A DNA stretch of 54,159 nt, taken from assembly GCA_028716245.1 (NCBI GenBank), contig JAQUQW010000006.1, forward strand, positions 1-54,159. The letters are read 5' to 3'. Positions 2-54,000 of this stretch are shown here, in pieces (position 1 is the stretch's first letter; every line of letters begins with the position of its first letter). The notes under the pieces are model-generated. The model was given only the letters and a program-made list of their open reading frames with translations. It had not been told where the DNA came from and did not search any database. Both the position numbers and the translations under genes were made by a program. The stretch is from Candidatus Omnitrophota bacterium (GTDB lineage Bacteria > Omnitrophota > Gorgyraeia > Gygaellales > Profunditerraquicolaceae).

Positions 2-3000
2 TAGATCAGCGGTGCCGTTATCACTAAACTTACTATCCAAATCGGCCCCCTGTGAACTCCCGCCGTCATTCATACCTTTATCTGAATTATCTTGCTTGCC
101 TTCTTCTCGATTCAACTTCCTAAGCAGACCCTGGAGATATTCCTTAGCCGAGTCATTGGTCCAAATACTAGTTTCCTCATTCTCGCCGCCGCCTTTTGAG
201 CTTTTATTCCCTTTTCGCGCGCGGATTAATTCTAGATCCGCCTTCCAATCCTCTTCCAGAACAAACCCGTTTACATGATGTTTGTTAAGATAAAATAATG
301 CCTTGAAAAGTTTTGGGTGGGATTCTAAATACTTTAATTCCCAATTCCGTATCTTTTCTTCGGACAACCTAGGATTAATTAAATGCTTTATTTCGTGGCG
401 GAAAATTACTATAAGGGCGAGGCTTAAGGCGGCGGTTTTGATATTAAGCAAGTAACGGTTAATTTTCAAGTAACCGGTATCGATATCAACCTTGCCAGCC
501 TGCGTAAGCTTATAAGAGATAAACAAAGGTATTTCTCTTTCCGGCGGGGCGTTGGCCAAGCCGATATAAGCTTCTTTTAAACTTTCAATCAATAAATCTC
601 TCTCGCCAGGGTTCAGTTCTCCTTTTTCACATATAATTTTCATATCTCCATTTTTAATAACCGCTTTTGCCAAAACATCGGGAATCCTCAAATAATCCGG
701 GACATTCTCCTTAACAACAGCCATATTCATCTTCGCCGGGTAAGCATACTTAGAATGTTCTTTCTTCAAGTCCGCTTCAGTAAGATTAAATTCCTTCATT
801 AATATCGGAGTCATTACTTCAAAAACTAATAACAACGCGTTAAGTTCAAAATTAGACCTGCTAGGCTCTAATATTTTTATATCCTTAAATTTTCTTATCA
901 TATAACGCGTTTCTTTCTTCGGAGACTCACCCTTAATAGGTATACAAAAATCCGCTAAGCCGGCTAATTCCGAATGCGGATCAGCAGTAATCAAAATAAC
1001 AAATAAATTATCTCCCTTGGCAATTTTTGCCAAATTAATAAGTTCAACCGTATTGCCGCTTCCGCTGACAATCAAAAGTATATCGCGTTGCTTAGGAACC
1101 TTTGTCGGGTTGATAATCGGGCTAATATCAAACTCCCTGCCTTCCGGTTTCATCAACTCTAGCCTTATTTTAAGCATCTCCAGGTCTAAATCCGACCTGC
1201 CTATCGCTCCTAAAAATACCCTTTTCCCATAATAGTTAACCTTCTTTAATATATCCGCTAACTCCGCAATCTTTGAAGCGGGGAATTCCTGGCTAAGCAG
1301 CACGCTTTTTGATCCTTCAATTAACTCTTTCATCGTCAACAATACTTTCTGCGCGTCCTCAATAGTCGCCTCTTGGCGTTTATCCTTTACAATACCGATC
1401 AAACTTTGAGCTACCGCTTCAAAATACAGTAAAACAAGCAGCTCAAACGTGCTTCCTAAAGGAAGAATCTGGGAAAGGTGTTCGTTACCTAAATCATCCT
1501 TTGATTTCCCGGGAAGGATGACAAATGAGGCTTCCTTTAATAATTCCGAAGACGCATTAGAAGTTACGCTAAACACATCAAATCCCAGTCTTTTCGCTTC
1601 CATTGAGTTTGTATTTACCCACCCTGTTCCCATTGAACCGGAAACGGCTAATACCAAATCCCCTTTGTTAACTCCAGGAAGTAATGATTTAAAATCCAAA
1701 ATATATACCTGAATACCTAAGCGTATCAGCCGGCGCGCCAGTATCTTGCCGGCTATCTGAGACCTGCCGGAAGCATTAATAAATAAATTGAATCCACCCT
1801 CTTTCAACCTGATTAAACAATTCAGGAATTCTTGTGTCTGCGCAATAGAGATAGCTGGTATCCCCTTTGCTAAAAACTCAGTTATAAATTCCGCTGAAAC
1901 TACAACATCATCAGCAACTGTTTTTAAGTATTCGTTTTTGGTTTGAATGGGCTTCTTAGCCGCCTCCAAGATAAGTTCCTTTATTATCTTAACTGCCGTA
2001 TAAGGTTTAGCCGCGTTAACTACAGATTCTCCAACAATAATATTATTTACGCCGTTATTGACTAAAGTATTGATAAAATCCTTATCAAACTCTTTCTCTA
2101 ATACCGCGCCCAAGCCCAGGCCTTCTGTTTCTTCACAAACCATGCGCGCCTCGCGCAGGAAAATCTCTTTTCGCTTTGCCTTCTCCGGTTCACTAAGTAA
2201 TAGTTCCTGCCTTTGCTCAGTCATGGATTTATGTAAATAAACCGCGTCCGCGCCAAACACTTTAGCTATAGCGGCTTTCTTTAAAGGATACTTTGTATCC
2301 ATAATGTCAACGATAATCTTAATATTATGCTTCTTGGCTTCTTCTATCGCTTCTTTGATAACCTCGCCTGAACTAAACCCGTAAATAACCACCGCGTCAG
2401 CTTCTTGTTTTGCCGCCGCCGCTATTTTATCAATACAGAAATTCATTACCTCTAAATCAGCGATAATTTCCTTATCAGGGAATTTAGCTTTAAAATTACC
2501 TATAATTTCAATGCCATTATTCATAATTAAACATAACCCCAATTTTACTCCGTCGGCTCCGGCTTTAAATGCCTGTTGGGCAATATACATCGCCTTATTT
2601 TCATCCTCCATATCTAAAGCTACTATAAGCTTCGGCGCTTGCGCCATTGCTTTCTTTATATCCTGTGTTGCCTGCCGGGGATTATCCGCATTATAGATTG
2701 CACCTCCGACAATAATTACTTTGACTCCGGCCCTGACAACATTATAAGCGGTCTTCTGTTTTACTCCTCCGGCAGCGGCAATTGGCACATTTATAGCTTG
2801 AGATATTTTAAAGACATAAGACGGAGGCAATTCCTCGCCTTTTCTTTGGTCGCTTATAGGATTATGGAAACAAATAACTATCAAAGACTCAGATATATTA
2901 ACCGGCTGCAATGCCGCGATTGCCTTTATCCATTTCAAATAAGTTTCCCAATCGCTATCCGGCTCATCCAATCTAAAGTGGTCTTTTAGTCCGATAAGGT

Positions 3001-6000
3001 CAAACATGACTATCTTTTTATATTTTCTGGCGATATTGACCGCCTTTTTCATTTCTGCATAGTCTGCTATTGCCAACATCGCGGCAACATCCGCTCCCGC
3101 TTCAAACGCCAACTCTATCTCATCCGCGTACACCGCTTTTAAGTCAGCGACTATTTTCTTTTCCGGAAATTCTTTCCTTAATCTTTTAACTATGGAAAGC
3201 CCTGCCTCTTTTATCATGTGAGAGGTTATTTTCACGAACGAAGGATTATCTTCAACAATTAATTCCTTATATTTATTAAGTACCTCTTTTAGCTTCTCCT
3301 GGGATTTTTGCGGCAATTTCTCGATCTTTCGCTTATCCATAATAATCTTAAACCCCTCTTGTTTTGCTTTAATAAAACACTCTTCCAAAGTCGCGTAAGG
3401 AGCAAAACCCGTAAGGATTATTGCTATATTAGTAGGATCGATTCCCAATTCTTTAGCCGCTGAGGCGACAATGTCTATCTCAAGGTCGCCAACATCCATA
3501 GTCAAAAACTCTACAGCGAATTTTTTGCCGGAATTGCTTTCTATTGCTTTCTTTAACGCATTCTTTACTCCTATTTTTATTAAAGGGGTTCCGGCCTCAA
3601 CCCAGTCCGCCCCTCCAGCAACTGCTTCCCGGGCGATTCTTATTGCCATTTCTGGATCTATCAAATCTAAAGCTACCTGAAGCAGGGCTTTTTCATTATT
3701 CATCTCTCCGCCATCTTTACTGCCTTGAGACTTAAACACCTCAAATCCCGAAGAAGCCAAAACAATGCGCTGCGGATTACCAAGCAAGGCAAAACCTCCT
3801 TCTTTGCCCAAATCTACTAAACTATGGTTTTTAAGTAGAACCAACTTTTTACTTAACTCTTTTTTCAGTATATTCTCTCTTATTTTAATCTTATTGAGAT
3901 CGGGCAGCGTATAAGAATAATCATAATTGTAATAATCTAAAATGACGGGAACTTCCCAAATTACAACTAAACCATCTGTTTTTAATATACTCTTCATAAT
4001 TGCATCGATGAATCTTTTTGTCCGCTTGGCGTCTTCCTTTAAAATCCAGCCGATGCCTTTAAATATTATGTAATCTAATTTTTCTTCTTCAAGGATACCT
4101 TTTTCTTTAAGCGATCTTATTTTTCTAGCAATAGTATCTATATCCCTGACATCAACGGAAATATTAACAAATTTCTTAAAACCCTGAACATCTTTTAGCG
4201 GAATTTCTTTTTTTAATCCTAATAACTCTTTAGGAACAGGAATAATACCATGCATTTCAACCATTGCATTTTGTAGTGCTTCAACGCTTTTTTCTTCACC
4301 GGTAAATTCATCCTTATCTACATTCACTCCAATAAGCATCCCATCTTTGCTTTTCTCTTTAGACGCTTCAGCTAAAGCCGCTAGAGGAACGAAATCCGGT
4401 CCAATGACCGGGTAAAGCCCAGTCTTCTGCTGTAAATTGAATATCTCAACAGCATATTCCCATAAGATAAGGTATCTCTTCCAATAATCTGTCGAATTTT
4501 TAATTTCATCTAAAAATTTATCTTTGATTATCTTGGCCTCTTTCAAAGTCGCAATCTCCCCACCGTCATTCTTTCCTTCGTTGATAAATCCTGCAGTGGG
4601 ATTATTAATATTAAATTTAGCTTCTGCTAACTGCTTTTCAACATTAGGAATATATTTTTCTATTCCTGCCGAGGAAAGCAACTCTCTCTGCGCCTGAAGC
4701 GCAAGGCTTTCAGCCAAACGGAAATTCCTGTTTTTCTGTTCAGCTATTGCTTCTTTTGTAACTCTTGAATATACCTGGGTGTAAAACCTTATTGCCTGAG
4801 AAGTCCCTGAAGGCCGTATGGTAATAAAATTCTTGCTGTTATAGAATGGCTCGCCTTCTTTTAAACTTGCATCCTCAAAGAAGAACCTGATGCCTTCGTC
4901 CGGAAATCCTGCGTAATGCTGCTCATCGTAACGGCCGGACTTAAACTCTATTGCTCCGATTACTTTTAAACCGCCCAAGACAAATGGCTTAACGCTGCCA
5001 ACATTCTCATTTGCCAGTTTCATCCATTCCTGTGCTTTCTTAAGCAGGTTTATCTTCTCGGTTATTCCTTCCGCCCCTTCAAAAGAACCTACTCGCGGTA
5101 ATGGTTTGTTCGCTGTTGCAAAATGGCCAATTTGCAGATAGATATCGTCTAACAATTCAAATACGGTGGTGTTATTTTCTTTCGCGTAACAGGCGATTTC
5201 AGCAGCTAATATACCGGCAAAAGTCCCGTCTTTATCGTTAACGTGCGCGTCATCCGCCAAAACCTCTCCTTCACGGATAACTCCGCCTAATATACTGAAT
5301 CCATTTGATTCTTCAGCGCCTGCTTCGTTAATAAACCCTAATTTTCTTAACTTCTGGCAGAAATCGGCGATATAGGTGAACCCAACCCATGACCGTTTAC
5401 CATTAAGATATTGTCCTCTTGCTTCTTTTTCATCTTTATCATACATTTCACCTAATGAAGCTACTCCAAATAATGCCGCAACCGCTTCAAGGGCATCGGT
5501 TGTTACATGGCTGAAGGTAATGTAGTGCTTTTTAGGTTCTTCTAATAAGCCTAATTGCTGTTTCTTCATCAGGCGATACCAGATAAGCACTGTCCATACA
5601 TCGTTTGCGGATAATAAACGATATCTCCCAAAAAGATGTTGCTGGTTTTCCGGAACCTTTACTATCCATCCCAACCTATCGGCGTCGGGGTCTGTTCCAA
5701 TTAGCATATCTAATTCATCAAAAGCTTCCTGCCCATACTCGGCAATAAATTCTTTTACTGCAATATTAGCAGATATCGGGTCGCCCGGGTCAGGCTGCTC
5801 GCCCCAGCCGAATGCCGGGAATAAACCATCAAGTACCTGAAGTTTAGTTATAGCCTTGACATCGCTAAATCCCAATTCAGCTAACAATCTCGGCACAGCC
5901 TTGTTGCCTGAACCGTTAAATGCGGAAAAACCAATCTTTAAATTTTTAGCCTGTCGCTTGACGAGTTCTCTATCTAAAATAAATTTCTTGACCTGCTCAA

Positions 6001-9000
6001 CGTGTAAAGTGTGCATATCGATAAAGTATTTAGAATTGTTTACATCTACTGTCTTATAGTCTTTACTTTTAAGCGGTTCTCTGCCGCCAAGCCAAATTAA
6101 CTGTCCTTCTTCCGCCTCCTCCAAAGATTTCAGTTTTATATCCGCGGTAGTCACTTTAGATATGGCAGCCTTGACTTCATTCTTCATCTTTTGAGGCAGC
6201 TGCGAACCGGTAAAATCTGTTATTTTATATCCGTTATATTGAGAAGGATTGTGGCTTGCGGAGATAAGAATACCCAAATCAGCGCGCACTGCTTTTGTTG
6301 TAACGCCGAACGATAATTCTGGAAATGGGCTTGCTTCATCAAAAAGATAGACAGTAAATTTATGCTCTGGGCTTGATTGAGCGATAAAACATTGCGCGAT
6401 CATCTCGGCAAACTCTTCACCTGCAATACGACTATCGTACCCGATTGCAACTTTATGCAATCCTCTTTCTTTTGCGTATTTAATAACGCCTGTGGTGTAA
6501 AGTAATAAGACTATATCATTTATGGTATTTGGCCCTTTAAGTATTCTGGCTGACGGGCCCTCTTCCTTTAAACGCCGCAGTTCTTCCTCTGTCAATGCAG
6601 CCATTCCGCGAATACCGGCTGTGCCAAAGGTAATATCCTGGCGGAACACCTCCACAATATCCTTCCAGCGGCCTTGCTGAATTGCCTCAAAAATGGCTTC
6701 CTGTGTCTTTGGCGATAGCTTCTTGATGTGATCATCGGTCGCCCAGAATTCCAAGTTTTTATAGGCAACCTTCATTGCCTTATTGTAAATCTCATCGGTA
6801 ATCCGCTTGGCATTGTGCTGATCGGTAAGGTATTTCTCTATCTGTTCCTTGGCGAGCCGTAAAAGACCTGCCTCATTCCCACCATCCAATTTTGTTTTGG
6901 AAAGCTTAGTTGACTTTAAACAAACAGGCTTATTATTATCGAAAATATAACCGCTTCCGTTCTCTATGATGTATTCAATTGCAATCGCCTCTCCAGTATT
7001 GATTCTGACTTTGTAGCCTAAAATACACAAGCGCTCGAGTATTATTTCTTTCAACTGCATTAAATCCATAGCCCTGACTGAACCTAATAGATTCTTAATC
7101 ATTAGCATATCTCGATGTAATATAGTACCCTCTCTTAGTTCAGAAAAACTTACATTGCCATGCCCACAATGGAATGTTTCATCTTCAGAATCGAAAGCTA
7201 GACTAAAAGCGAATTCATATGGCATAACTTTACCATTGACTACCTTGTAGGTAATGTACTCTTCCGTATCTGCCCATCTAGATCTTGAACTACCTACAAT
7301 AATATATCCACCTTCCTCCACATGTTCTGCGAGGTTCTCTAGTTCTTCAGAATAGGAATCTTGATAATAAGTCATAACATTGAATGCTCGTACTACTCTT
7401 GCTTTCTTGGATAATCTAAATTTTCTAAAGTCTCCTTGGATGATAGAGAGATTAGAAGTTTGTCTTACATAATGTTCTATAGGATTAAATTTGATGCAAT
7501 TACCATTCATATCTTGATAATCTTTACCTTTGGATTCTCTTAATAGATAATCCCTTAAGCTTAAATATCTCTCGATTTCATACTGGGATATCTTAGAAAC
7601 TTTAGGAACATATTCCATCCAAGTATAGTCTATGTTTATGATCTCACTAGAATTGTCAAAGAGAATTTCGATGTAACCTTTATTTCCCCGAATACGCACC
7701 ACATATGCAGGAACATAAAGTTCAAGGCCTACAACTTCTATATCGGAATACTTTATGCATAATTTTTGGGCTAATTCAATTATAGTGTATGGCGGATAAC
7801 CTGGACCAATATCTAACATCAGCATCTCAGATTTAGCTAACTCTTGCACAATATACTCATCAACATAACTCAATCTCCCTTTGGAAGTAACTATTCGGGG
7901 TTGAATTTGCCTTGCAACAGAAATATCTGTATTGCATAAATAATTAATATCAAATGCCCCTTTTAATTTCATCTCTTTATAGTTCTTCGACAAATGAACT
8001 AACTTTTTCCAATTTTCTTCGTTAATCCATTTTAGTAATTCTCCGTCTACTGCGGGAGTAATTGATACGATGGGCAACTCATTCTTTACTTCGCCAACTA
8101 ACCTTGTATCTCCGTTTTTATTAAGACCGTATTTATAAATTAATTCCATAGCTGAATCGAAACTGCCAGCTTGTAATAGTAGTTGTTCTGTGTTTACACT
8201 AACAAAACCACCTTTTTGCCTAGAGGTCTCTATCTCTATTTGTTTAAATATATGTCTTGCAAACCTGATATTAGCCAACATATAATCAACTACATCTTCT
8301 CCACCCCGACTTCTTATTTGTTCCATTTTCTTATTAAATTCTTCTAAGTACTTATCTGAGACGCCTTTCTTTGTTTCATTATCTGTTTGTATAAAATTAA
8401 TTGTTAGGTCTATACCGAATTCTTTCTTAGTACTTTCTTGGGTTACTTGTAAAACTACAACGTAATACGGGCCTATCTTATTTAATGCGTGTAACCTTTT
8501 AATAAACCCATTTGCAGTATAAGGATGAAGTTTTATATTAAATCCTTTGCTGCATAATTTACTTATGACATTATTTAAAATTCCCCCAAGTTTAGCCCTT
8601 AATTCCTCTTCTGCAATATCCACGTTGGCAGAAATATCAAAATCAGGGTTATTCCCTATATAAGTTAACCTCGCTGTCGAACCAAGATTTTTTACCCAAA
8701 GTAACTTTTTGTCAATGCATTGTTGAATACTAATTCTTATAACATCTATAATAGTTTTTTCGATTTCCTTTATATTAGCGACTTCATTTTTATTCAACTT
8801 AAATTTCTCTATTTCCTGTAACAACATGACTTCAAATACATCTCCAACCACTCTATCAATACAGAGTTCTTTTCCACCGTCTCTTAGGAAATTTATAACT
8901 TTTTTTGCTTCCTTATAAAAAATATTAAAATCTATATCCGGATTAGTTCTATTTAATATTAAAGATTCTTTACTAATGACTTCAGTTAAACTCCTATGCG

Positions 9001-42000: not shown

Positions 42001-45000
42001 TTACATTCTGAGGAGTATCTTTTAGATTGCTCCATTCTCCATCAGCCCAAATCCGCTGTGTAGGAATCCAGGTTTGAGTTACATTGACCGTATTACCCAA
42101 TTTATCCACATAAGAATAAGGCTTATCTAACGGTTTAAAATACCCCTGCTCCTCGTAAGCCCAGCCGCCCCAGACCTGATAAGGATAATGCCAGCGATAC
42201 CAAACAATATCCGTACCGGGAATTGAATAACGTACGCGAAAATATCTGGTCTCTTCATCGGGGCCTAAACCGTATTTGGCATCTTTGGCATCAGCATTTT
42301 CCACTTCTAAAATAATATTGCCGCTGGCTTTATCGATAAAATAGCCATACAAAGGAATCCTCTCCAACCCGATAAATTGCGGAGCCACGAATATCGCGCC
42401 GTCGCGGTCAATAATAATGGTTCGCCCGATTTCATCTCCGGGAACATTATATTCAAAGAAAATTTCATTTCCGATTTTAGAGATCGTTTGAACGAGGCGC
42501 AAATCTTCCGCGGTTAAATTCTCCGGTGTCTTTTGTTTTATTTGGGCAATTATAGTTTTAATATCATCTTTCTGAGATTCGCTAAAATTATAGATATTAT
42601 TAAGGTCGACGAGTGCTTCTTGTGAATACATCGTTTTAAGTATCTCATATCTTGCCTTCGCGTCATTCCACTTAATGAGCATTGCTTCTTCGGGTTGATA
42701 GAAATTCTTATCCTGATATTTAGCGACATAATAAATATCTTTGAGGTCTAAAGAGGCGATCATTCTTGACCTGCCAAAAGCATCCACCTGGGGTTCGCTG
42801 TAAATATAGTTTAACGGCTGGCCTGCGCTGGTGCTAGCGGCAAACTTAGTAAGCCTAAACTCGCTAAGCGGGAAAGTTTTATTTTTACCGGTTTGAGGAT
42901 CATAAACGCTTAATTCTTTAAATTCGGAGGCCTCTCCCACCATACGCGTAACCGTTCCGATTGTGGGTTGAGATTCTGATTGAGCCAGTGGATTCTTAAA
43001 ATACTTAAATACCGCGGGGAAATTCGAAGGTACAGTCTGATTCGCTTGTGGTTGCGGATGTTCTTCGGGAACAGGAGGAGCACGGGCGGTAAGAGTTTCA
43101 TTTATTGCCGAAACAGGAACTTTGGTTTCATTCTGCCAAAGCCCGCGCATCTGAGACACAACTTCTTTTTCGGTTCCATTTATCGTAACCCAGCCAAAAA
43201 ACGCTTCGTTACCGAAGAAATCATAAGGAACATCAAAAGCAGCCCCTGAAGTAGCCTGGCTAGTAGCATTTCCTGCTTTCCAATACTCATCCTGCCAGGT
43301 CATAAAGGTAACGCCAAGAATATTCTTAGCCTTTAAAGAATTCCAGATATTCACATCTGCCGCGGCTTGTTCAGTTTGATTTTCTTTACCTTCCCGCATA
43401 TTATAAGAATCCGCGCCGGTTTCAGAAATATAAATTGATTTATTACCCGCGGCTTGCTTAACTTCATCGATTGTGTTGGCAAGGCTATCCCACTGATACG
43501 CGTTTAAACCGAAAACATCCACTGAAGGAACTTGAGCAATTACACTCTTTAGCGCGTCTTTAGCAGAAGGAGTGCCGTCATAACCGTAAGCAGTAGAAAC
43601 CGGATGGTTGGGATCTATCGCCTTTGTGGCATTGGCGGCTTTTTCCAAAGCCTCATACCAAACACTAATATTACCGTTAGACCATTCCGGATGATAATTG
43701 TTTTCATTGCCAAACTCCCACATCAAAACTGCCGGATGATTTTTATAGGTCTTAATATAGTTTAGATAAGTGCCAGTCTTTATATCCGGACCTGGATTAT
43801 AGCGGTCATCAAAATAAGGGAATCCTACGATTACCCGGATATTATTTTTAGCGGCTAAATCCAACACATCCGGCATCGGCGGATAATAGGTTCTTATTGT
43901 ATTTATCCCGGTTTCATTCATCTTCTGAAAATAGGTTTCATTTACTGAATTGAGATTAAAAACAAAATCGCGCTGCCCCTTACCTTGAGGAACCGTAGAA
44001 AAGGTAACCCCGCGGATTTTATAGCTGCTATTGCCGACACTGAGCTGATTATCTTTTACAGTTACAGGCGTAATCTCCGGGTAAGTTTTTACCTCCGCGG
44101 GGAAATATGACTTATCCAGCGTAAATTCAATCGCCTTTGGCGCGGAGTAAATTCCTTTTGGATAAACCATTTCGATATTAAGGTCGGTTAAAGTTAAACG
44201 CGGCTCACTATAAACGCCATCATAAACAACATAGACCGTTTTATTTAATTCACCGAGGTAAAGAGTTCTCTTATAAACGGTAAACTGTGACTGATTCTTA
44301 AAGCTATTGATAAATTTATTAAATTCATTCTCAAAGTCATCGCTTCTATTGGTAAACCTTACTCCCTTTTGTTCTAAAAATCCGCGTGAATCTTTAACGC
44401 CAACAGTGCCTATACGAACATCCTGCTTCTTAATATCTCCTGCCAAGGAATGAGTAGTTTTAATCACTTGCCCCTTATCATTTACTTCATTAAAGAATTT
44501 ACCTGTGCTTTGCTCCAACTCAATCAAATTGCCTCTGGCATCTAATTTCTGAAACTTAGTTTTTCCTTCGGCTAAATTTATTTCCAGCATATTCACTACT
44601 ATCCCGCCTTTATTGGCTTTAAGCGGGATGAAAATGCGGGAAAGCTTTCCGGTTAAAGAATCATAAGCGCTAGCGGGAATATTATCTTTATAAACTATTT
44701 TCTCTTCGGGAGTAAGCTGATAAAGATGTTCGGCCTGACTGTAAGCGTCTATAATTATCTGGTCATTTAAAACATCTACTTTCTTAATAATATTGATGTA
44801 GTCCTGATTCTCGACCTCATAAACATAAAGGACATTATTCTTGGTCTCATATACCGGTTCGCCATGCTGATCAACACCTATCTGCACGGATATCGTTATA
44901 CCTCTCTCTTTAGAAGTATCTACGGTATAATAGGGATGCTTCAATCCATTCATCCGGTCATAATAAGTCAATTCCTCAAGTGAAACATCCCAATTCGCCA

Positions 45001-48000
45001 GAAGCGTGGCCCCTTGATAGACCTTATAGAAAACCTTATTTATATCTTCCCATGTTTCTTTAACTACCACGCCTTCATTTATGCCGGTAACTCGGCTTAC
45101 CATCCCCTGCGTATCCTCTTCTCCTGAATAGTGGCTTTGAAGTTGCTGCGCTGCAGTGGGTGCCTTCCCAACGCTGGACTTTATCAATGTATTCGGCTGC
45201 TGCTCATAACTTGTGCCATTTTTAATGATTATATCTGCCCCCGTAGAAAAGACGGGATTACCGAAAGAATTCTTTTGTGAAGGAGTAAGAGAATTATAAG
45301 TTTCGGGGGTAAAATATCTGATTTTATCCTGCTGCGTCTGGTTATTTTTCCACCATATAGCCATTCCGCTCTCGCTGCTTTCAACCAGATTTACAAACTT
45401 CCAGGTATCTGTTTCATTAAGAGTAATATTCCATTTCGAGCCCGCAGCCTTTTCTTTTGCCGCTTCAAAAGGAGTCAATTCGTTAGACGAGATGTTAGGA
45501 ACTATTTCCGTAGTATTTTCTGCTATATCTTGCTGGTGCATTTCATTAGATATTACATCATTTCCTGCGTTCGAGTTTTGATCGATAGCGTTATAAGAAT
45601 CCAGGTTAACCGCATCATCTTGATGTACATCGGCTGGATGGGCAAGAACTGGGGTGACAAACCAAGCGGCAGAGACAGATAAAATAGTAAACATGGCAAA
45701 TTTCGCATTTAGGTTATTTTGATTATTTTTTTCTTTTCTCTTTCTCTTGTACTCATCATGCTCATGTCTTATATCCCATACCTCTTCTCTATATAAAATA
45801 TTTCTTATTTCTTTTTCAGATTTAATTAAAAGGCTCACGTAGAATTTGTCTGATACAGTGATTTCGGGCGGGATCTTATATTCTTCTTCCATAAACTTGA
45901 CTTTTGAAACCATCGTTTTAGGCAAAGATTCATATATCTGCTTGCGATATGCATTGATTAATTTCCTGATGTTTTCCGGGCGTTTTAAAACAAGTATCGA
46001 TACATCAGATAAACCGGTATCTTCTAATATCTGCCGAGCGGCCTTTTCTGTCTTAATCCGCAGTAAATCTTTGGTGAATTCCATCTTCACCTGTTCCGAA
46101 TCTGCGAATAATTTCCATTCGCCATTTTGCAGCCGAATGATAATTACCATAATCATAATTACGGCTGTAATCACAAAGAAACTCCAAACATCATTCATCG
46201 CCACCCCTTCTGCCGCCAGGGCTGGGGTGGCCGTAAGCAGCAGACCGAAGATAACTATGCCCGCGGTTTTCATCATGGGATAGAAAATAACAAAAATATT
46301 GCCATTGACAAATTTAATGGTATATGCTAATTTATTTTTGATGGAAGAAGATGTGTTTTGGACAGATTCACGCAGACAGTTAATTGCAAAAGCGTTAATA
46401 AATTTATTCCAGGCATTAGTAATTGCCTTATTTATTTCAGAAGCTTTTGCTAAAGCAACCGCTCTGTGGAAATTATTTTTTCTTTCTGCAATGCTTTCTT
46501 CTTTAATAGCGGCTATTTTTGTATGTCCAACAAAAGATCCTAAGGAGGATTGAAATGACTGCTTTAATAACTTTAACCATAATCTGCCTGGTAATCTTAA
46601 TTTGGTTTGGAATTGATCAATATCGCCACAAGCACGTTCACTAGACACCGGCCCCGCCCTAAGCAACCCGCCGTCCTTAATCATAATATCTCTATATATT
46701 GATCCGCCATCGCGCTTTAAGAAAGCATCTTCTCCCGCCTTAATTTCTTTCGATTCCATCTTCCCTGAATTATTCTCTTCGGGATTGCCAAATAATGACT
46801 TATAAAGATTAATTCGAGGCCCAAATACTCCTGAAAGCTTCCAGCTAATAAATATAATTATTATTACCGATGGAATTGTAAGTAATCCCCAATAAGGATC
46901 CGAGATATCATATGGTATAACTTTTAATATCGAACTCCAGAAGATCGTTGTTCCCACAGAAAAATCAGCGACGATAGGTCTTTCAAGAAACAAAAGCCCA
47001 AGGATATCCTTTAGCATATACACAAGGGTAAATATGAAACTGCCGATTCCGATCCCCGCAAGAAACATTCTTTTCATATTAAATTTTTTAATTACTAAAC
47101 GTATTAAATAAAAACTTATTGTTAAATCTAATATATTGGGCACAAAATTACTCAATAATTCACTAATCTCCCGCGGAAGATAGACCTGGTGTCTTTGGAT
47201 ACTATAATTCGGGACAGCTAAAGGCGCTGCAAGTCCGGAAGCAAACTGTTCAGGGGCCCCGGTTTCAACAAAAGGCAAAATCTTACCTATCAATCCATAC
47301 GGATCCATAGAAGGATTCAATATTAAACCATTAAATTTATGCGCATCATATGTTAACGGTTCAAATATGGCATAATGGAGAAGTTCATGTGGCAAATGCA
47401 TTATTGCAATCACTATGGGCAGAGCTGTTAAAGCCGATCCTGACAAAAGAATAATGACGCTAATTAAATCAGATACGCCTTCCTGTCTGCTGAACTTTCT
47501 GATAGAATCTCGAATTCCAGCAAAATTGAGGACGGTTCTATTTTTTCTTGCTCCCAATCTCCAATAAGAAATAATACCAATTAAAACAATGATCCCTGTA
47601 ATTCCTGCCATGATAGGAGACATAACAACTATCCCCGCCCCCCCCGCCGCCAGGGCCGGGGCAGCTAGAGCACCTTTTACCGTAGGCGCAGTGAATAATA
47701 AAAGTGAAGCAAGCGCGAGGATCCAAAGCCAGACTTTCGCGGGAACTTTCTTTATAAAATCTACTACCCTATTGCCGCCATCATTGGACTTGGTTTCTCC
47801 TCTTTCCTGCGCTAAAGGTTCTAAACGTTCTTTGAAGAATTGTGTCAATAAAACATACTTACCTTCCTCAACGGATTTTTCATCGGCAGCCTCCAATGCT
47901 TTAAGCAACTGCACTAAATCCTTCATTTTTCTATATCGTCCCACAATGCTCAAACCGTCTAACTTATATTGATTAATTGTAGTTTTAAGATTAAGCGGAT

Positions 48001-51000
48001 AATATCCTTTAGATATAAGAATTATATCTACCAGCTTACTCGCTGTGCGGCCGTTTCCATTATTATAAGGATGTATAATAATAAACTTATAAAAAGTTTC
48101 TACCAGAAGATTTTCTAATTTAGTATTGCCTTTTATCCACATCGTATTAAGCCAATCTATATATTCTTCCATACTGCGAGGAATATCTTTTGGATCAACG
48201 AGTTTTAAATTTTCTCTGGTACCTATAACCACCTTCTCTGTTCTTAAACCTAAGTAAGAAGGAGAATTTGGATTGCCTGTTTCATCTAGCTCTCTCCCGC
48301 GAGCAACGATAACTTCTTTGTGCAATTTGTTTATAATCTCTTGGCTGATTATTCTTGGGGCATCTTTACTTAGCAGGCCGCCGTCCAAAGCGCGGTTAAT
48401 CTTTTCAGCGGATCTTTCTTCCTTTAACCTTTGAAGTTCTTTTAATATCCTGCCTCTGCCGATTTTCTTAATAATCGCGCCCCTGATATCTTCCATTGAA
48501 ATCTGAAGCGGGAGCATTCGCGCATTTATCGCTTTCAGGTTAAATTCTATATCCACCGCCGCGGAAAGCAGGTTTTCTTCCGGCCCGCAAAGCATTAAAC
48601 GCGCGTCAACAATCTCTGCTCCCGCGTTTAATGCCGCCTTTAATGCGCTAAAACCTCCTGTTTCCGTATTTGTCGATGGCACGCGAGATTCAGCAGAAAA
48701 ACTATTTTTATCTAACCGATCTAACGTAAATTGCATGGGCTTAGCTATCTTGCCTTTTACATATAGAATACCTCTCCCTTTACGGCTCTTCAGGTTGTTA
48801 ATTAAACCAATAAATAATAAATTTGATATTCTGTGCCCTTGATAATCGGGAGCAACAAATAGGAATGATACTTCAAGCGCCAAAGGATTACCCCTGTCTT
48901 CATCCACATCGACAAAACCAACGGCCTGTCCTTGTTTATTGCATACAACAACAGAATTACCGCTTAGAGATATTCCTCGCTTGCGCATAAAATCAATTAC
49001 CTGAGGGTGATAGTTTAATTTACTGCCGATATCTTTAAATGCTTTTATCTCAACCTGTCTTGCCATCACGCGCAGCAGGGCTTTCTTATGGGCTTCACGA
49101 TAAGCGGGAACATCAGGATAGATATTTGCCAAAAGCGGACCGAGATGTCTATTTAATACAATGAATTTCTCTAAAGACAGGCTTTCATTTTTACCGCAAA
49201 AGATCTCTATTAACCCGGCATAGTAATCTTCGATTACGCCTTCTGCTTTGGTCATAGCATTAAGCCCTTTTATTTTTTCATTTTCAGTTTGGGCGTCAAA
49301 CACCTTCCAATGCCCTTCTAAAATCCTGCCTATAATTTCAGCGTTATTAACCTGTTTAACTATATCGGCTATATTTTTCCCGCTTAATTGCGGCCATTCG
49401 CCGGTATTAATTATCCGGGTAACGGCGGATTTGAGTTCAGTTGAGACATCTTTGGATTCGTAAAAATATTTCTTCATCACTGCTTTATATATATCTTTAT
49501 TGCCGGCGTTAATGCTAAAACTTTCCTTTATTATCCCATACGCTTTTTCTTTAATCCCCATCGCAGTTGCTATCAATATCAATTGTAGATAGAAACCAAA
49601 ATCTATTTTCTTGGCTTCTTTTATTGATAAAGGTTTTGCGATTATGCTTTTCAGGATATAAAGGTAAGTTTCTCTGATATTGGAGGTTGGGAGAGCGTAT
49701 TCGGAAACCTTCCCCGCCGGCGTAGCTACGACAAACTTCTTGCCCTCTATTATGAGGTTATTGAAAACCTCATCCCGAAGCTTAAGCTGTTCAGAAACCT
49801 CCTGTAATAACATCGAGTTACTTTCTTTACCCACAAAATATTTAAATAACATATTCGATTCTCTCGATATCTCTGTAGTAACTTCTGGGGGATAAATCTC
49901 TTTGCGCCTATTAGCTTCCGCGATTACTTTTTCATATAAAATATATTGTTTACGGATGGCGTTCCTGAATTCCCTTACCTTTTTTGCCCTTGCGAAATCT
50001 TTTAATGAATATTTCAATGTCATTACTGTGTCTTGAAATGTCCCAACGGCGGCTGCTGCGCCCTGCACATTTTCGGATTTTTTGAGATGCCCCAACTTTT
50101 CCTCCAGCCCCCGGATCTCTTCCGCGTTAATGATTACTCTTAATGAATCTATTCCTCGTGATATTATGTTAAAAGTTTCTTGGGGATAAGCCCTCCCCTC
50201 TTCTCCGGCTTCCTCAAGCGCTTCTTTGAATAAATCATATTTTTCAGAAAATCCTTTTTCAATATTTTCATATCTTCCGTCATTGAACCAGATTGACTCC
50301 CCGGTTAATTTCTTGGATGCTTGTATAAGCCTCTTTATCGGATAAAGCCTGTTTTCTTGATTCGCTTTATTTATTTCTGTTAATGCTGCATTGAAGTCAA
50401 ATTTATCTTCTAGCACTCCGCCGTCGGCGATAATCAGCTCACCTTTTGCTTCTAAATCAAAACGTACCCTAAACCTCTCTACTCCGCCAACTAGAGCTTT
50501 ATCTGCTTCTTTTAGCATTACCCTTACTTTTAAACTATCTGCTGCCTTCTCTTCAAATTTTTTATAGAACCGAACTGCTTTTTTATTGTCTTCTCTAACC
50601 CACAACAATGCCCATTTTTTCTTCTCAACATTTTTAATATGCCTTAAACCTGCTTCTAATAATTTAGTCCCGATCCCCCCATTTTTGAGTGAAACTGCTA
50701 TGTAAGGAATAAGAGAAACATTACTCAAGGCCTCTAAATCTACATCCTCTACAATTACATACCCTACATAGGCATTGTCTTTGATGGCAAACCATACTCT
50801 ACTCTGTTGCGCAAAACCTTTATCTGGCTGGCCGGTAATTAATTTCTTAATCAGTAAGTTATGATCTACGCCGTCTTCTTCGGGTAATCCTGCCAAAGCG
50901 TTGATCTGTCTAATGATTGCGACCACTTCCGCGCTATCCAGGCCTAGCTCTTTAGTCGTCTTAATAGCAATGTTACCGCCGTCAAGAGAAACTTCTCTTG

Positions 51001-54000
51001 TTATCAGTTGTTCCGGAGACCCCTTGAGGTTCTTGCTCTGGAGGAGGGAATTTCTCAAGAGGCCTCCAGGAACAACAATAGCCGGCTCGATTAAGGAGAT
51101 ACCTGCCACGGTAAGTATCCCTAATGTAAGCAGCGGCTGGGTAACAAATAAAATAGCCCCGACCAACGCTAACACAAACCAACCTGCCACGGTAGGTTGA
51201 ATAGACCTGGTTGAGCCAGGGCTAAATCTTGCTGAATTAGTTAGTTTCGACTGTATTGACCCTATAGACTGGAACGTTCTGGCGGGCGCGGCTGATACAA
51301 TACCTGATATGGTCGGCGACCGAACCGACAAGCTCTTTCCATGCATCTGCCTGGGCATTATGGGCATAGACGGAGCCTGAATCTTTAACCAGGAAGATCC
51401 TAATCTTGTTACTGCCGTGCTCACGGGCTGCGGCAAAGGTTGAGTAGTCGCTTGTGGAATCGATGATGTGGTGAATCTTAATGGCTTCGAGCTTAATGGG
51501 AGACATAGCACACCTCCTTTTAAGGTAGTGGTTAAGGTTGAAATAATAATAGCCGCGAATGCTATTCCTGTTAAATAAAGAATAGCCTGCGGCTTAGTTA
51601 AGGTGTTATGTATGGAATTTATTAGGGTTTGAGGAGCTAAAGCGGAAAGGCCAAATAGCACTGCGGCAGCTATTAAGGCATTGATAAGCTGCGCAGGCGG
51701 GCCGCGCACAAGGCGTGCGCCAAGCTTGGCCGGATAATTAACTAATCTTGTATAAAAACGGTTTAATTTACCGGCTTCTCTGCCAACATGCTCTTTAGAT
51801 TCAACATCTCCAATTGAACTATCTGTCTCATCTCCTGCAACCGGCGAATTCTGTACTGATTGTCTAACTCTGCCATTGTTTCCCTCATTTCCTGAATTTT
51901 TATTGGACTTAACATTTTTTCCTCCCGTGGCTAATTGGTTAATTGCATTTACCACAAAACGCACAATCTTAACCAATGGAGGAGCCAATGAGAAAATCGA
52001 CTTATCAATGTTTGTCTGGGATATCGGCAGTGATTTAGCTTCTTTTACTTCGGACTTGGAAATACCGCCTAAGGCTTTTCTTACGGAAGCGATTAAACTG
52101 CGGCCTGAACCAAATAGGCACCCTGCCAATTCAGCTAAAGCATCCTTTAAGTTGGCATCTTGAACCGGCAAGAAGAAAGCGTTTTCATGGCCATTTCTAT
52201 ATGGGAACCTGCCAGAATCCGGTAAGGCGTTATTGGCCCTGCGCTGCACACCCGGTAATGACAATCCGCTAATCACCCTAAATACGCTTGCCGCCATCTC
52301 AACTATACTGCTTAGGCCCGCTCGAATTGCCCCAAGCTCAATCTTTATCGCGTTTATCGCTAACCCACCGTCTGATGCGTATCTGCCTACAGAATTATTT
52401 AAGATATCGAATACGTTATTCAATATGTCAAAGGTATTCTTGGCCTTGTCTTTATTCTCTGCTACAACCGTCTGATCGCTGATGGATTCAGCTGTTTCAA
52501 CAGCATCTGCCGCTGCTCTTGCTTCCAATTCGCCTCTTACATAGGCATATTCTCTTAACGCCTCAAATGTATTGGTTAACTGAATAAGTAATACAAACAC
52601 AGCTTCAAACTGTGACACAGAAAGCCCAAATCTATTCATAAGACGATGGGCAAAGCGAAGCTCGCTTCCGCGTAAACGTCCTAATCCGCGTAATGCGATA
52701 GCGTTCATAAGCTTTTTAACAAGAGGCGCAACGATATCATCTTCGCGGCGGACAGCTTTATCACTTGAACCAAGCTGAATAAGATAATTCAGCAAATTTA
52801 TAGCCGCTTTCTGATTTTTCGTGAGGTTCTCTAAGGCGCTGGCGGAATTATTAAGGACATCTATTGCATTACGGAGATCGGTGTCATTGCGAGCGGAGCG
52901 AAGCAATCTTAATTCTAACTGATTGGCTAAACTGCGGAAGGTATTGGCAAGTTCGGCGAATATAGCTTCCGGAGGGCTAAGGCCATTGCTTATTTTGAGA
53001 ACAGAAGAAAGACCTTCCACATCCCCTATTTTTACTGTCCCGGTTGCGTCGCAAGGAGCCGCGGACGAAGCGGCAACCCCAGCAGCTGCTCCACCATGGC
53101 CCATGTCATCACCGGCTGCCTGAATACCGGTGTTTGCCGGAGCATTTGCTCCTGTTGCATCTGCATCGCTAGCCCCTGAATTGGTACTTCCCGGATTATT
53201 TCCTGCGACTGAACCTGCGCCGCCATTGCCGCCGTTATTATTATTTGCATTGCCATTGTCACCATTGTTGTTACCATTATTTGTATTACTATTGCTATTT
53301 GTATTATCGGTATTGCTATTTGCGCTATTGCTTGCACTGCTGCTTGTGCCGCTGTTGCTATTATTGTTAGCATCTATACCAGTTCCACCAACATTCTTAA
53401 TTGCTTTCTGCTCTGTTTCACTTAATAAGTTACCTTCTAATTTTTCACTCTTAATTACCCCTTCTTCTACAATCAATATAAATCCACCATTAATTATAAA
53501 TGATTCATCAAGCTTAATCTCGCCATAACCAGCAACATGGTTATCTCCATTATCTTCTGCATATCTAATTGTTGTCCCCTTAATACCATATATTTGTAAA
53601 ATGTGATACTCATCTTTCCCAGAAGGCCGCACTATACTTACTTTATCAAGATTTCTCTTAATTATACCAATGGCCTGATCCATTTTTCCCACTTTTATCG
53701 CGCTAGGCTTTTCTTGCCTTATAGATTCTGCCTCTTTGTACTCTCCTGCATTTTCGTGTTCTGTAGCAACCTCATCATAAACCTGTCTAATAGTCTGTAA
53801 ACCAGTATACAAATCCTTAACTACATATGAGCCAAACTTAGCGGCACCTACCAATTCACGAAGAAGTTTATCCGCTCTCTCCCTAACCCTAAAATTCTTA
53901 GCTATGCCAATCAAGCAATCCACCACATCCACTACCCCTGTACGCCGACGTAGCTCATCTGTACGCGCATGTGCATCAATTGCTATTTCTTTAACCTTAG

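Follow-up and report, generated by a model that had tools for sequence, protein, structure and literature searches.

Why should one tripeptide, Asp-Gly-Gly (DGG), recur along a single reading frame, and at which level might it act? The window analysed here is the whole 54,159-nucleotide stretch. Six-frame stop counts showed that its only open frame lies on the minus strand (1–54159, first full codon at 54157), runs for 18,052 codons without a stop and continues off both ends. About 20 different enzyme families tile this frame (Pfam), and the relatives of the gene are Ca. Omnitrophota MAGs. This shows that the window covers an inner part of a giant gene of the Omnitrophota type, whose single frame joins many complete enzymes head to tail.

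DGG is a selected tag

A preliminary description had listed 27 DGG copies, each by the low plus-strand end of the 9-nt word NCCNCCRTC (GAY-GGN-GGN, or DGG, on the minus strand), with 4–5 expected by chance. A full count of the window frame returned exactly these 27, none extra and none missed, at the same coordinates; the expectation was 4.3 with independent residues and 6.1 under a first-order Markov model. DGG ranked first among all tripeptides for over-representation (p = 1.8e-13; runner-up, p = 1.4e-5), and in-frame GAYGGYGG occurred 25 times compared to 2.5 ± 1.6 in codon shuffles. D preceded 27 of the 92 GG dipeptides, a 5.4-fold excess, with no other residue enriched at that place; G followed 27 of the 79 DG dipeptides, and NGG, EGG, DGS and DGA stood at expectation. 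The motif was found 27 times in the coding frame versus 0 and 2 times in the others, with a strong strand bias within the window, and roughly half of the sites carry synonymous C>T changes. Since the exact motif is ~10-fold enriched and one-mismatch variants show no excess around it (27 vs. 36.7 expected), it is under selection. These counts show that DGG is a selected junction tag, GAY-GGY-GGN, ancestrally GAC-GGC-GG.

The tag lies at seams between whole proteins

The description of nearly all copies as lying between domains was borne out and could be sharpened. No DGG fell inside Pfam-matched stretches (0/27, P = 0.009) or inside profile-extended Pfam envelopes (0/27, P = 0.0006), and the unit between tags is the equivalent of a whole protein: multi-domain enzymes (for example phosphoglucomutase [PGM] domains I–IV and radical SAM-SPASM) contain no internal DGG. 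Together with the site-by-site placement, this strongly supports DGG as a mark of seams between complete fused proteins, more than of mere domain boundaries.

All sites are on the minus strand. The tag at aa 596 (GAC GGT GGG, 52364–52372) separates two unannotated segments. A 186-aa GNAT module (GNAT match 1117–1201) is bracketed by aa 1059 (GAC GGC GGT, 50975–50983) and aa 1245 (GAC GGC GGA, 50417–50425). A 201-aa Fic module follows aa 1925 (GAC GGC GGC, 48377–48385), its Fic match (1938–2046) beginning 13 aa later, and ends at aa 2126 (GAT GGC GGC, 47774–47782), with a cluster of TM-like helices ~20 aa on. A tandem pair spaced by 12 aa, at aa 2483 (GAT GGC GGA, 46703–46711) and aa 2495 (GAC GGC GGG, 46667–46675), comes next, its second member opening a 3,866-aa DGG-free membrane block. 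This gap (aa 2498–6360, 35078–46666), previously described as lacking the motif, is real; it holds a GH2-like region, an FKS-type 1,3-beta-glucan synthase and many TM helices (Pfam, hydropathy), and is one large membrane module. Its far seam, with a TM and HEAT-repeat module, is at aa 6361 (GAT GGT GGA, 35069–35077). The radical SAM-SPASM module lies between aa 7401 (GAT GGC GGA, 31949–31957), 59 aa ahead of the radical SAM match, and aa 8029 (GAT GGC GGT, 30065–30073). The tag at aa 8306 (GAT GGC GGT, 29234–29242) divides a 277-aa WbuC-like cupin module from a methyltransferase, whose match ends 40 aa before aa 8606 (GAC GGT GGC, 28334–28342). A fucose-pyrophosphorylase-like/DUF218/DUF4922 segment is preceded by aa 9442 (GAC GGC GGC, 25826–25834), and a sugar-nucleotidyltransferase plus LbH module is enclosed by aa 10712 (GAC GGC GGC, 22016–22024) and aa 11339 (GAT GGT GGC, 20135–20143).

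Homology limits coincide with the tags further along. The tag at aa 11814 (GAT GGC GGT, 18710–18718) precedes a GDPGP1-like (HIT-type) module, and aa 12281 (GAC GGT GGC, 17309–17317), aligned with DGG in the relatives P0006 and P0019, divides it from an HD-like module. When aa 11817–13016 served as query for an exhaustive phmmer search, the matches formed three blocks with the two internal DGGs as limits, and only 1 of 146 local alignments crossed aa 12281 by >10 aa. The alignment of the stand-alone protein P0001 spans exactly from this tag to aa 12702 (GAC GGC GGC, 16046–16054), where it stops and the next homology block begins. An HD match begins 54 aa after aa 13018 (GAC GGA GGA, 15098–15106), and the P-loop of a uridine-kinase/PRK-like module ~25 aa after aa 13311 (GAT GGG GGG, 14219–14227). 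The guanylate kinase is framed by aa 13542 (GAT GGC GGA, 13526–13534), ~32 aa ahead of where residue 1 of solved guanylate kinases falls, and aa 13799 (GAT GGC GGC, 12755–12763), ~28 aa past the projected C-terminus. A 1,294-aa NUDIX-containing segment ends at aa 15093 (GAC GGT GGA, 8873–8881). Stand-alone PGMs (770–806 aa) start 0–10 aa from aa 15758 (GAT GGT GGG, 6878–6886), the projected Met1, and end at aa 16531 (GAC GGT GGG, 4559–4567), the projected C-terminus. The tag at aa 16815 (GAT GGC GGA, 3707–3715) lies ~10 aa ahead of the LQVALD N-terminal strand of a hexulose-phosphate synthase (HPS) module, and the window's last seam, aa 18031 (GAC GGC GGG, 59–67), follows the HPS/OMPdecase-like/PHI segment. 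Untagged seams also exist, for example between HPS, OMP-decarboxylase-like and PHI units within 59–3706. The preceding Pfam match often stops 30–60 codons before the DGG.

In an AF2+MSA model of the PGM region, residues 59–827 folded confidently and both DGGs fell in flanking low-pLDDT breaks: DGG15758 closes a low-confidence stretch, DGG16531 sits within a 9-residue break, and at both seams the Asp N-caps the helix that follows. K/R are enriched ahead of the sites and D/E behind them, and Pro and aromatics are depleted in the flanks; no conserved flank sequence was found around the DGG sites. These results show that the tag occupies the short, flexible stretch that separates the final helix of a unit from the opening helix of its successor.

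Other lineages carry other tags at the same seams

DGG marks the same seams in related Omnitrophota proteins. The GDPGP1-like module is flanked on both sides by DGG in P0005, P0006, P0019 and P0021, with neighbours that all differ, and in P0005 DGG is the top tripeptide (6 vs. 0.54 expected). The same modules recur with changed neighbours, and homology breaks at the tag. A conserved C-terminal domain follows the last DGG of the relatives; in the smaller P0006 and P0021, variable modules lie between conserved N- and C-terminal regions. The stretch of L001 (Omnitrophota) aligned with the DGG-free block at 35–57% identity likewise has no DGG. Relatives of the PGM module, at 72–79% identity, have SSSP[VL] or VSSA in place of DGG: the position orthologous to DGG15758 reads SSSP[VA] in P0154 and P0156 and VSSAL in P0155, and SSSP[VL] coincides with, or lies a few residues from, the position orthologous to DGG16531 in P0154, P0156 and P0157. 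In P0017, ASSAV separates the same pair of neighbouring modules, and no tag could be recognised in some relatives. This shows that the tag is lineage-specific, with SSSP[VI]/(A/V)SSA or DPAA[IV]G at orthologous seams elsewhere, likewise codon-conserved. Across ~25 kb of ordinary genes from relatives that carry DGG, the motif was neither enriched nor oriented.

The tags are conserved at the codon level

The first Gly codon is GGY at 25 of the 27 sites in the window, GGA and GGG appearing once each (aa 13018 and aa 13311), whereas GG dipeptides outside DGG in the giant gene use GGA/GGG freely (28/65). The GGY/GGC preference recurred in four other Omnitrophota contigs, and GGC was used at 12 of 14 sites in other genomes (13/16 with L012). 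The Asp-codon bias at DGG was not significant against context-matched controls. Constraint spans nt 1–8 of the tag, where positions 3 and 6 are Y; position 9 is N, and drift is confined to the synonymous positions 3 and 6. Such conservation was found across five DGG genomes of 36–56% GC. The SSP and DPAA tags of other lineages are nearly invariant 11–12-mers with invariant rare codons (AGC TCG CCG GTN for SSP, with AGC AGC CCG ATA common to L009 and L011; GAC CCC GCG GCG for DPAA, 6/8 identical). Tags of all three lineages form GC-rich islands in AT-rich mRNA, and no hairpin or extended sequence context was found at the tag.

Possible roles of the tag

Our favoured reading, to which we give a probability of about 40%, is that DGG is recognised at the protein level, most plausibly in the proteolysis of a polyprotein, and that its DNA conservation comes from in-frame module exchange. 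DGG would be recognised by a sequence-specific factor. The most plausible candidate would be a Gly-Gly-type endopeptidase, encoded in another part of the gene or elsewhere in the genome, that cuts the polyprotein at or just after DGG. A cut in the flexible breaks would restore near-native N- and C-termini to the freed enzymes. New seams may be copied from existing ones, adding nucleotide conservation, and the 8–12-nt tag may serve as microhomology for in-frame gain, loss or swap of modules; DGG would thus be a processing mark and a breakpoint for module shuffling at once. The frame-locked, sharp motif, with no one-mismatch excess despite synonymous C>T changes, partially supports a protein-level site, as does its place in short flexible breaks. 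Cleavage of such giants was proposed by West-Roberts et al. 2023, who stated the cleavage points to be unknown and reported that Omnitrophota giants carry peptidase domains of the C39 (double-glycine) and S8 types close to the N-terminus (10.1101/2023.11.21.568195). We found no earlier report of the DGG tag in the literature searched, and the DGG seams are the first concrete candidates for cut or recombination points in such proteins.

Several observations weigh against processing. No peptidase domain was found across the window's 18,052 aa or in P0006 and P0021, which are complete proteins with DGG. The SSSP and DPAA tags lack GG, and therefore a single C39-type enzyme cannot account for all tags; it is also difficult to see how a protease and its substrate could change from one tag to another at every site. 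Untagged seams in the window and untagged relatives also count against it. Neither GGY at the first Gly nor the invariant rare codons in SSP and DPAA would be expected from protein-level selection alone. The PGM, sugar nucleotidyltransferases and kinases could form a tethered metabolon feeding the glucan synthase, which would speak against cutting. The preliminary proposal of a cleavage site or joining signal at module boundaries stands for the boundaries, with each functional reading only partially supported.

Such a metabolon is what a passive hinge would provide. Here DGG would only stop one helix and start the next (a basic end to the C-terminal helix, Asp as N-cap, Gly-Gly as the swivel, an acidic start to the following helix), which would keep the fused enzymes independent yet tethered at the membrane and uncut. 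The modelled Asp N-caps, the charge pattern and scarcity of Pro and aromatics in the flanks, the coherent enzyme set and the lack of a protease in the window fit this reading, which we nonetheless consider unlikely. A hinge should tolerate NGG, DGS, GSG and the like, but near-variants are unenriched next to an exact motif at ~10-fold. It would explain GGY by avoidance of GGAGG and GGGGG, in line with GGA and GGG being the codons nearly absent at the first Gly, but the remaining GG dipeptides use both freely. The lineage-wide uniform tags and rare-codon 12-mers of SSP and DPAA are left unexplained.

We judge equally doubtful a pure DNA-level joining signal, with GACGGCGG as the core or microhomology used or left by in-frame insertion, deletion and exchange of modules and the amino acids incidental. 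The codon conservation in five DGG genomes, stronger still in SSP and DPAA, the unconserved flanks and the reshuffled modules with breakpoints at the tag argue for it, as do tandem DGG pairs, which occur with stubs of 9–23 aa between members. However, drift is seen only at synonymous positions 3 and 6 when six others should decay equally, decay of incidental amino acids should leave one-off variants and no excess was found, and the occurrences are locked to one frame. No recombinase, inverted repeat or longer att-like sequence is present, ordinary genes of relatives are not enriched, and 8 nt is far below the known limits of homologous recombination.

A frame-locked RNA-level signal in translation or transcription, such as a co-translational folding pause or stop-less chain separation, appears improbable. 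G-C/G.U pairing to a partner RNA would account for Y at positions 3 and 6; the constraint over nt 1–8, with N at 9, the GC-rich islands and the 30–60-codon offset from the preceding Pfam match would suit it. No partner RNA was identified, hairpin and extended context are absent, pairing does not need a fixed frame, and the pattern rests on 27+16 sites. To our knowledge, there is no bacterial precedent for such a signal.

Chance or compositional origin of the 27 copies is refuted (p~2e-13, ~1e-9 after correction for 8,000 tripeptides), and a genome-wide oriented word (Chi- or uptake-sequence-like) landing in linkers is very improbable: the motif resembles GNTGGTGG-type Chi words and is strand-biased in the window, but it is frame-locked and seam-locked and neither enriched nor oriented in ordinary genes.

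Likeness to known systems

C39 double-glycine peptidases and the viral polyprotein proteases that cut after GG (adenain, ASFV pS273R, coronavirus PLpro at LXGG) offer one comparison. Canonical double-glycine sites lie in N-terminal leaders with hydrophobic residues at –4/–7/–12. As in Gly-Gly-directed processing, the Gly-Gly pair would close the released unit and the site is short, without conserved flanks. The –4/–7/–12 pattern is, however, absent from the DGG flanks, the window has no C39 or clan CE domain, and the sister lineages' tags contain no GG; C39 domains are reported in Omnitrophota giant proteins (10.1101/2023.11.21.568195).

MARTX (multifunctional-autoprocessing repeats-in-toxin) toxins resemble the giant gene as one very large bacterial polypeptide with an array of unrelated enzyme/effector modules; their repertoire is shuffled between strains, processing at short unstructured seams frees the modules, and RTX-type repeats accompany an InsP6-activated cysteine protease domain that acts in cis and cuts after Leu (PMC6315884, PMC4453568, PMC2900308). 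The conserved ends around the variable modules of P0006 and P0021 are a further point of resemblance. In the window, by contrast, no such repeats or protease domain were found, the modules are enzymes of central metabolism, the tag is DGG, and cleavage is only proposed.

Polymorphic toxins use demarcation motifs, VENN in CdiA and PxxxxDPxGL in Rhs, the latter also part of autoproteolysis. These too are short peptides conserved in DNA at a point of module exchange, with the dual protein and DNA role that we propose for DGG. In those toxins each protein has a single marked junction, where a constant region meets a variable toxin tip with its immunity gene, whereas the giant gene has at least 27 junctions between enzymes and no toxin-immunity pair. 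Ordinary inter-domain linkers are, like the DGG seams, short, flexible and placed between independently folding units, but they have no fixed tripeptide repeated 27 times, no codon-level conservation and no wholesale replacement by another fixed tag in sister lineages.

The Archaeovorin or 'multi-enzyme metabolic cluster' class of Omnitrophota giant genes is of the same kind as the gene in the window (10.1101/2023.11.21.568195; 10.64898/2026.06.07.730766); term searches found junction motifs, linkers and cleavage sites unmentioned in both papers. The window and this class share an ORF of >10,000 aa, TM helices, Omnitrophota relatives and many tiled Pfam families, among them PGM, radical SAM, methyltransferase, GNAT, HD, NUDIX and HEAT.

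A giant multi-enzyme frame on the minus strand

Only one of the six frames of the window was open: minus-strand frame 3, with 18,052 stop-free codons and both ends open, longer than the 10,000 aa that mark Omnitrophota multi-enzyme giants. About 20 distinct Pfam families tiled the encoded protein with none dominant, which fits a multi-enzyme giant ORF. The Pfam matches on this strand comprised two GNATs, a Fic domain and a GH2-like region; a eukaryote-type FKS 1,3-beta-glucan synthase with many TM helices, and HEAT repeats; radical SAM-SPASM, a WbuC-like cupin and a methyltransferase; sugar nucleotidyltransferases, DUF218 and a GDPGP1-like HIT enzyme; HD domains, a uridine-kinase-like kinase, a guanylate kinase and NUDIX; and a four-domain phosphoglucomutase (PGM), a hexulose-phosphate synthase (HPS), an OMP-decarboxylase-like domain and a SIS/PHI domain. 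The protein matches the 'multi-enzyme metabolic cluster' or Archaeovorin class of Omnitrophota giant genes, which are themselves already known. The N-terminal C39/S8 peptidase and SecA-like domains of such genes (West-Roberts 2023) were absent from the window, and the true N-terminus of the gene lies outside it.

Among GTDB genomes, the nearest DNA relative was locus L001 of a Ca. Omnitrophota MAG, with 35-57% identity over aa 3260-6169. Named close protein relatives were mostly Omnitrophota MAG fragments, including most of the named top PGM-module matches and the DGG-bearing relatives. A word-indexed protein search with aa 12601-14000 gave a single match, and a scan of viral contigs gave none. 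The FKS domain (PF02364, 272 bits; window 36900-38900, aa 5097-5717) is embedded in the giant protein and is kept in L001 and L004, giant-gene loci found through FKS, and in the fragment P0002. On the coding strand G far outnumbers C and A far outnumbers T (plus-strand GC skew of about -0.2 throughout), so that over 54 kb the mRNA is rich in purines and poor in C. The unannotated N-terminal segment contains a low-complexity patch rich in Asn and Gly, NGNANNNNGGNGGAGS (window 53200-53260, aa ~300-320).

DGG is strongly over-represented in the coding frame

The preliminary description had reported 27 copies of Asp-Gly-Gly (DGG) from 59 to 52372, against a chance expectation of 4-5. Our complete count returned exactly those 27 copies, and the computed expectation was 4.3 with independent residues or 6.1 under a Markov-1 model. 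The reported positions are the low plus-strand ends of NCCNCCRTC nonamers, which read GAY-GGN-GGN in the minus-strand frame; a plus-strand reading was ruled out by stop-rich plus frames and an ORF on the minus strand. No tripeptide was more over-represented than DGG (p = 1.8e-13; next best p = 1.4e-5), which excludes chance as its origin. Asp preceded 27 of the 92 GG dipeptides and was the only residue enriched there, and Gly followed 27 of the 79 DG dipeptides, while NGG, EGG, DGS, DGA and GGG showed no excess over expectation in the window protein. At the nucleotide level, in-frame GAYGGYGG occurred 25 times compared to 2.5 ± 1.6 in codon shuffles, with no excess of one-mismatch variants (27 vs 36.7 ± 6 expected).

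The flanks of DGG showed no conservation at the amino-acid or nucleotide level beyond a mild K/R excess upstream and a mild D/E excess downstream, and no extended nucleotide motif, hairpin or att-like site was found outside the 8-nt core. A Shine-Dalgarno relic was ruled out, as GGAGG was present at 1 of 27 sites without a Met at a fixed downstream distance; so was a recurring cryptic domain bearing DGG, as the units on either side are unrelated enzymes. Nor did DGG behave as a genomic word of the Chi or DNA-uptake type: the word fell 27/0/2 in the three coding-strand frames of the window, with 2 on the opposite strand, and was at background level in ~25 kb of ordinary genes beside the related proteins P0006, P0021 and P0011 (loci L007, L008 and L012), occurring on both strands in those of L008.

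DGG marks seams between whole-protein units

DGG marks the seams between whole-protein units fused head to tail and not every domain boundary; five independent lines concur. The placement of DGG between domains in the preliminary description is thereby upheld and sharpened. None of the 27 copies fell in Pfam-matched stretches (15.7% of the protein, P = 0.009), and this held after the envelopes were lengthened to the whole profile (24.6%, P = 0.0006); none lay inside PGM domains I-IV or radical SAM-SPASM. Splitting the protein at DGG gave 28 pieces, and each Pfam-positive piece contained whole domains (GNAT, 186 aa; Fic, 201 aa; methyltransferase, 300 aa; kinases, 231 and 257 aa; PGM, 773 aa).

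Homologues ended at or near DGG. An exhaustive HMMER search with aa 11817-13016 against 1.84 billion representatives returned 160 matches in three blocks (query residues 52-470, 477-905 and 879-1199) divided at the two internal DGGs. When aa 11817-12704 were re-analysed locally, only 1 of 146 domain alignments extended more than 10 residues past the DGG at aa 12281. P0001, a multidomain protein that stands alone, aligned exactly from DGG12281 to DGG12702 (40% identity, E = 1e-95). Ten stand-alone phosphoglucomutases (770-806 aa) had their projected Met1 0-10 residues from DGG15758, the longest extending to DGG16531, and solved guanylate kinases were contained in their DGG-delimited piece with margins of ~30 aa.

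An AlphaFold2 model of aa 15701-16600 (18 homologues, pLDDT 82.8) had a confident fold over residues 59-827. The DGG at residues 58-60 closed a low-confidence upstream stretch and that at 831-833 lay inside a 9-residue break, with the caveat that alignment depth stops at these points too. At both DGGs the Asp N-caps the following helix. A single-sequence model of aa 12651-13850 was uninformative (pLDDT 32).

At least two fusion seams carried no DGG. The piece at 59-3706 (aa 16818-18033) holds HPS, a second OMP-decarboxylase-family domain and SIS/PHI untagged between them, and another such seam probably lies within 22016-25825; older or natural fusions such as that in piece 59-3706 seem to lack the tag. 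The DGG-free interval 35078-46666, already pointed out, was confirmed: this 3,866-aa stretch is the membrane glucan-synthase block, and the L001 stretch aligned to it also contained zero DGG. Tandem DGG pairs 9-23 residues apart occurred at window 46667-46711 (aa 2483 and 2495) and in P0011 of L012 (aa 381 and 407), and may be what remains as stubs where the unit between two seams was lost.

Relatives carry lineage-specific tags

P0005 covers the C-terminal 1,519 aa of a further Omnitrophota ORF; here too DGG was the top tripeptide (6 vs 0.54 expected), always outside the two identified domain matches. A DGG stood at either end of the GDPGP1-like unit in P0005, P0006, P0019 and P0021, at 36-44% identity and with differing neighbours; the C-terminal DGG of this unit matched that of the window column for column in P0006 and P0019. 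Together, the GDPGP1-like and PGM modules had varied neighbours across at least 10 proteins. In P0006 and P0021, both complete, DGG also followed a conserved N-terminal domain, and in P0005 and P0021 it preceded a conserved C-terminal one.

Other relatives had other tags at the same seams. The PGM unit of P0154, P0156 and P0157 (72-79% identity) carried SSSP[VLA] at the DGG positions of the window or no more than a few residues away, that of P0155 carried (A/V)SSA, and in P0017, where two adjacent units of the window are present, the joint was ASSAV. The tag was DPAA[IV]G in P0010 (DPA, 9 vs 0.77) and SSP[VI] in P0007 and the ORF following it. Neither SSP nor DPA was in excess in the window protein, and some relatives had no recognisable seam tag. 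DGG was not enriched in the more distant giant relative L004 (1 vs 1.6 in 8,091 aa), a count that says little because these residues are mostly unannotated (only glucan synthase, DUF218 and TPR).

Tags are conserved at the codon level

The first Gly codon of the window DGGs was GGC in 17, GGT in 8, GGA in 1 and GGG in 1, whereas GGY accounts for 54% of Gly codons overall (p = 2e-5) and for 37/65 in the remaining GG dipeptides (Fisher p = 6e-4). No constraint was seen on the second Gly codon. Of 14 DGGs from four further contigs (GC 40-56%), 12 had GGC as first Gly codon, vs a background of 40% (p = 6e-4) and vs 12/22 in other GG dipeptides (p = 0.08). The Asp codon was GAC in 11 of these 14; we did not lean on this bias and dropped it as independent evidence because it was non-significant against other D-G contexts in both data sets.

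Codon conservation was much more striking in the SSP and DPAA tags than in DGG. DPAA was coded GAC CCC GCG GCG in 6 of 8 copies; SSPV was AGC TCG CCG GTN and SSPI was AGC AGC CCG ATA, each shared by a pair of unrelated contigs. These tags are nearly invariant 11-12-mers, found at L009 (P0007 and the next ORF), L010 (P0010) and L011 (P0166). TCG, CCG and GCG are rare codons in these contigs, and the tags form GC-rich islands in AT-rich genes.

What the tag may do

About half of the DGG sites had drifted C>T at synonymous third positions (Asp and first Gly codons). This drift, without an excess of non-synonymous one-off variants, indicates purifying selection on the amino acids, which argues against a mere scar or a generic flexible hinge and for specific recognition. 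The reading we favour, with a probability of roughly 40%, is a tag with two roles: recognition or processing at the protein level, and a breakpoint for module exchange. For the predicted function a processing site leads, because a cut at DGG would restore near-native termini, the architecture is that of a polyprotein, and C39 and S8 peptidase domains have been reported in Omnitrophota giants, where cleavage points were stated to be unknown (10.1101/2023.11.21.568195). On the DNA side, new seams might be copied from old ones, the tag supplying microhomology for in-frame exchange of modules.

A simple protease account is weakened by the differing tags at orthologous seams, by the absence of canonical double-glycine flanks and by the lack of any protease match in the 18,052 aa; neither the unannotated window segments nor the conserved N-terminal domain of the relatives gave a Pfam, NCBIfam or PDB match to one. 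Protein-level selection leaves the codon conservation unexplained, and a role in the DNA fits it. A pure joining signal is a live but less likely rival of the reading with two roles. A tethering hinge, which the sharp motif and the selection on its residues speak against, is a live rival of equal probability.

More speculatively, and with a lower likelihood again, frame-locked, codon-conserved tags (GACGGCGG for DGG, AGCTCGCCGGT for SSPV, AGCAGCCCGATA for SSPI, GACCCCGCGGCG for DPAA) might serve as genetic 'punctuation' that replaces stop and start between formerly separate genes and is read by lineage-specific machinery. Such machinery might be a dedicated system for joining cassettes in frame, or it might work in translation or on the RNA to separate or pace the chains; on this view the giant ORF would functionally be a stop-less operon. 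A signal in the RNA, less likely than a role in the DNA, is the least probable of these readings. Tag complementarity to 16S rRNA decoding-site sequences gave near-matches only, which we regard as numerology.

Giant genes of 30-440 kb are an Omnitrophota hallmark with unexplained products, and the main question in the literature is whether each acts as a single working polypeptide or is cut into pieces. Term searches within two giant-gene preprints and the Nature Microbiology survey, and a full-text search on Omnitrophota polyproteins, found no description of seam tags, linker motifs or cleavage sites in these genes. With a seam tag, giant proteins can be parsed by rule into units that suit annotation and structure prediction; the tag also supplies specific peptides and neo-termini that can be sought in existing proteomes, and defined sites for mutation. 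Our data suggest that lineage-specific, codon-conserved tags are a general, hitherto undescribed principle of giant-gene building and rebuilding.

Likeness to known systems and layout of the relatives

The closest known systems are MARTX arrays, Gly-Gly-directed polyprotein or leader processing, and polymorphic-toxin demarcation motifs; the DGG tag shares features with each but fails their defining ones. The P2-P1 Gly-Gly of the C39 double-glycine site was present at 27/27 DGGs, whereas its amphipathic-leader pattern of hydrophobic residues at -4/-7/-12/-15 was absent (hydrophobic fraction 0.26-0.37 vs background 0.39), and a C39 peptidase (PF03412) had no match in the window, P0005, P0006 or P0021. 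Like the DGG, SSP and DPAA tags, the VENN/DPxGL demarcation motif is a short peptide at an exchange point with its DNA also conserved; the variable C-terminal toxin and adjacent immunity gene of polymorphic toxins are lacking here, where modules are metabolic enzymes, and no immunity-like small ORFs lay beside P0006, P0021 or P0011. As in MARTX, the variable module array is shuffled between relatives (GDPGP1-like and PGM modules), but the C80 cysteine protease domain and RTX repeats had no Pfam match in the window.

Many multi-module Omnitrophota proteins resemble MARTX in layout too, with conserved ends and variable enzyme units between. The common form has a signal peptide, a ~350-aa conserved N-terminal domain and a ~110-aa C-terminal domain beginning GGIDFRALP... 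(or GGIDLN...PVI..I.P), and is seen in P0006, P0017, P0021, P0023, P0030 and P0056, with a variant in P0010, P0014, P0015, P0018, P0029, P0045, P0084, P0086 and P0124; the loci concerned are L007, L008 and L010. Neither terminal domain belongs to a Pfam or NCBIfam family, and the N-terminal one had no PDB sequence match. The stop-free contig L011:3-6338, which encodes P0166, has the same 37-aa coding stretch at its start and end, and represents either a piece of a giant gene that was assembled as a circle or in tandem, or a real tandem repeat. At L009:7639-7663 the ORF of P0007 overlaps the one after it (at least 5,086 aa) by 25 nt in a different frame, and the two are probably one giant gene broken by a frameshift (a sequencing error or programmed).
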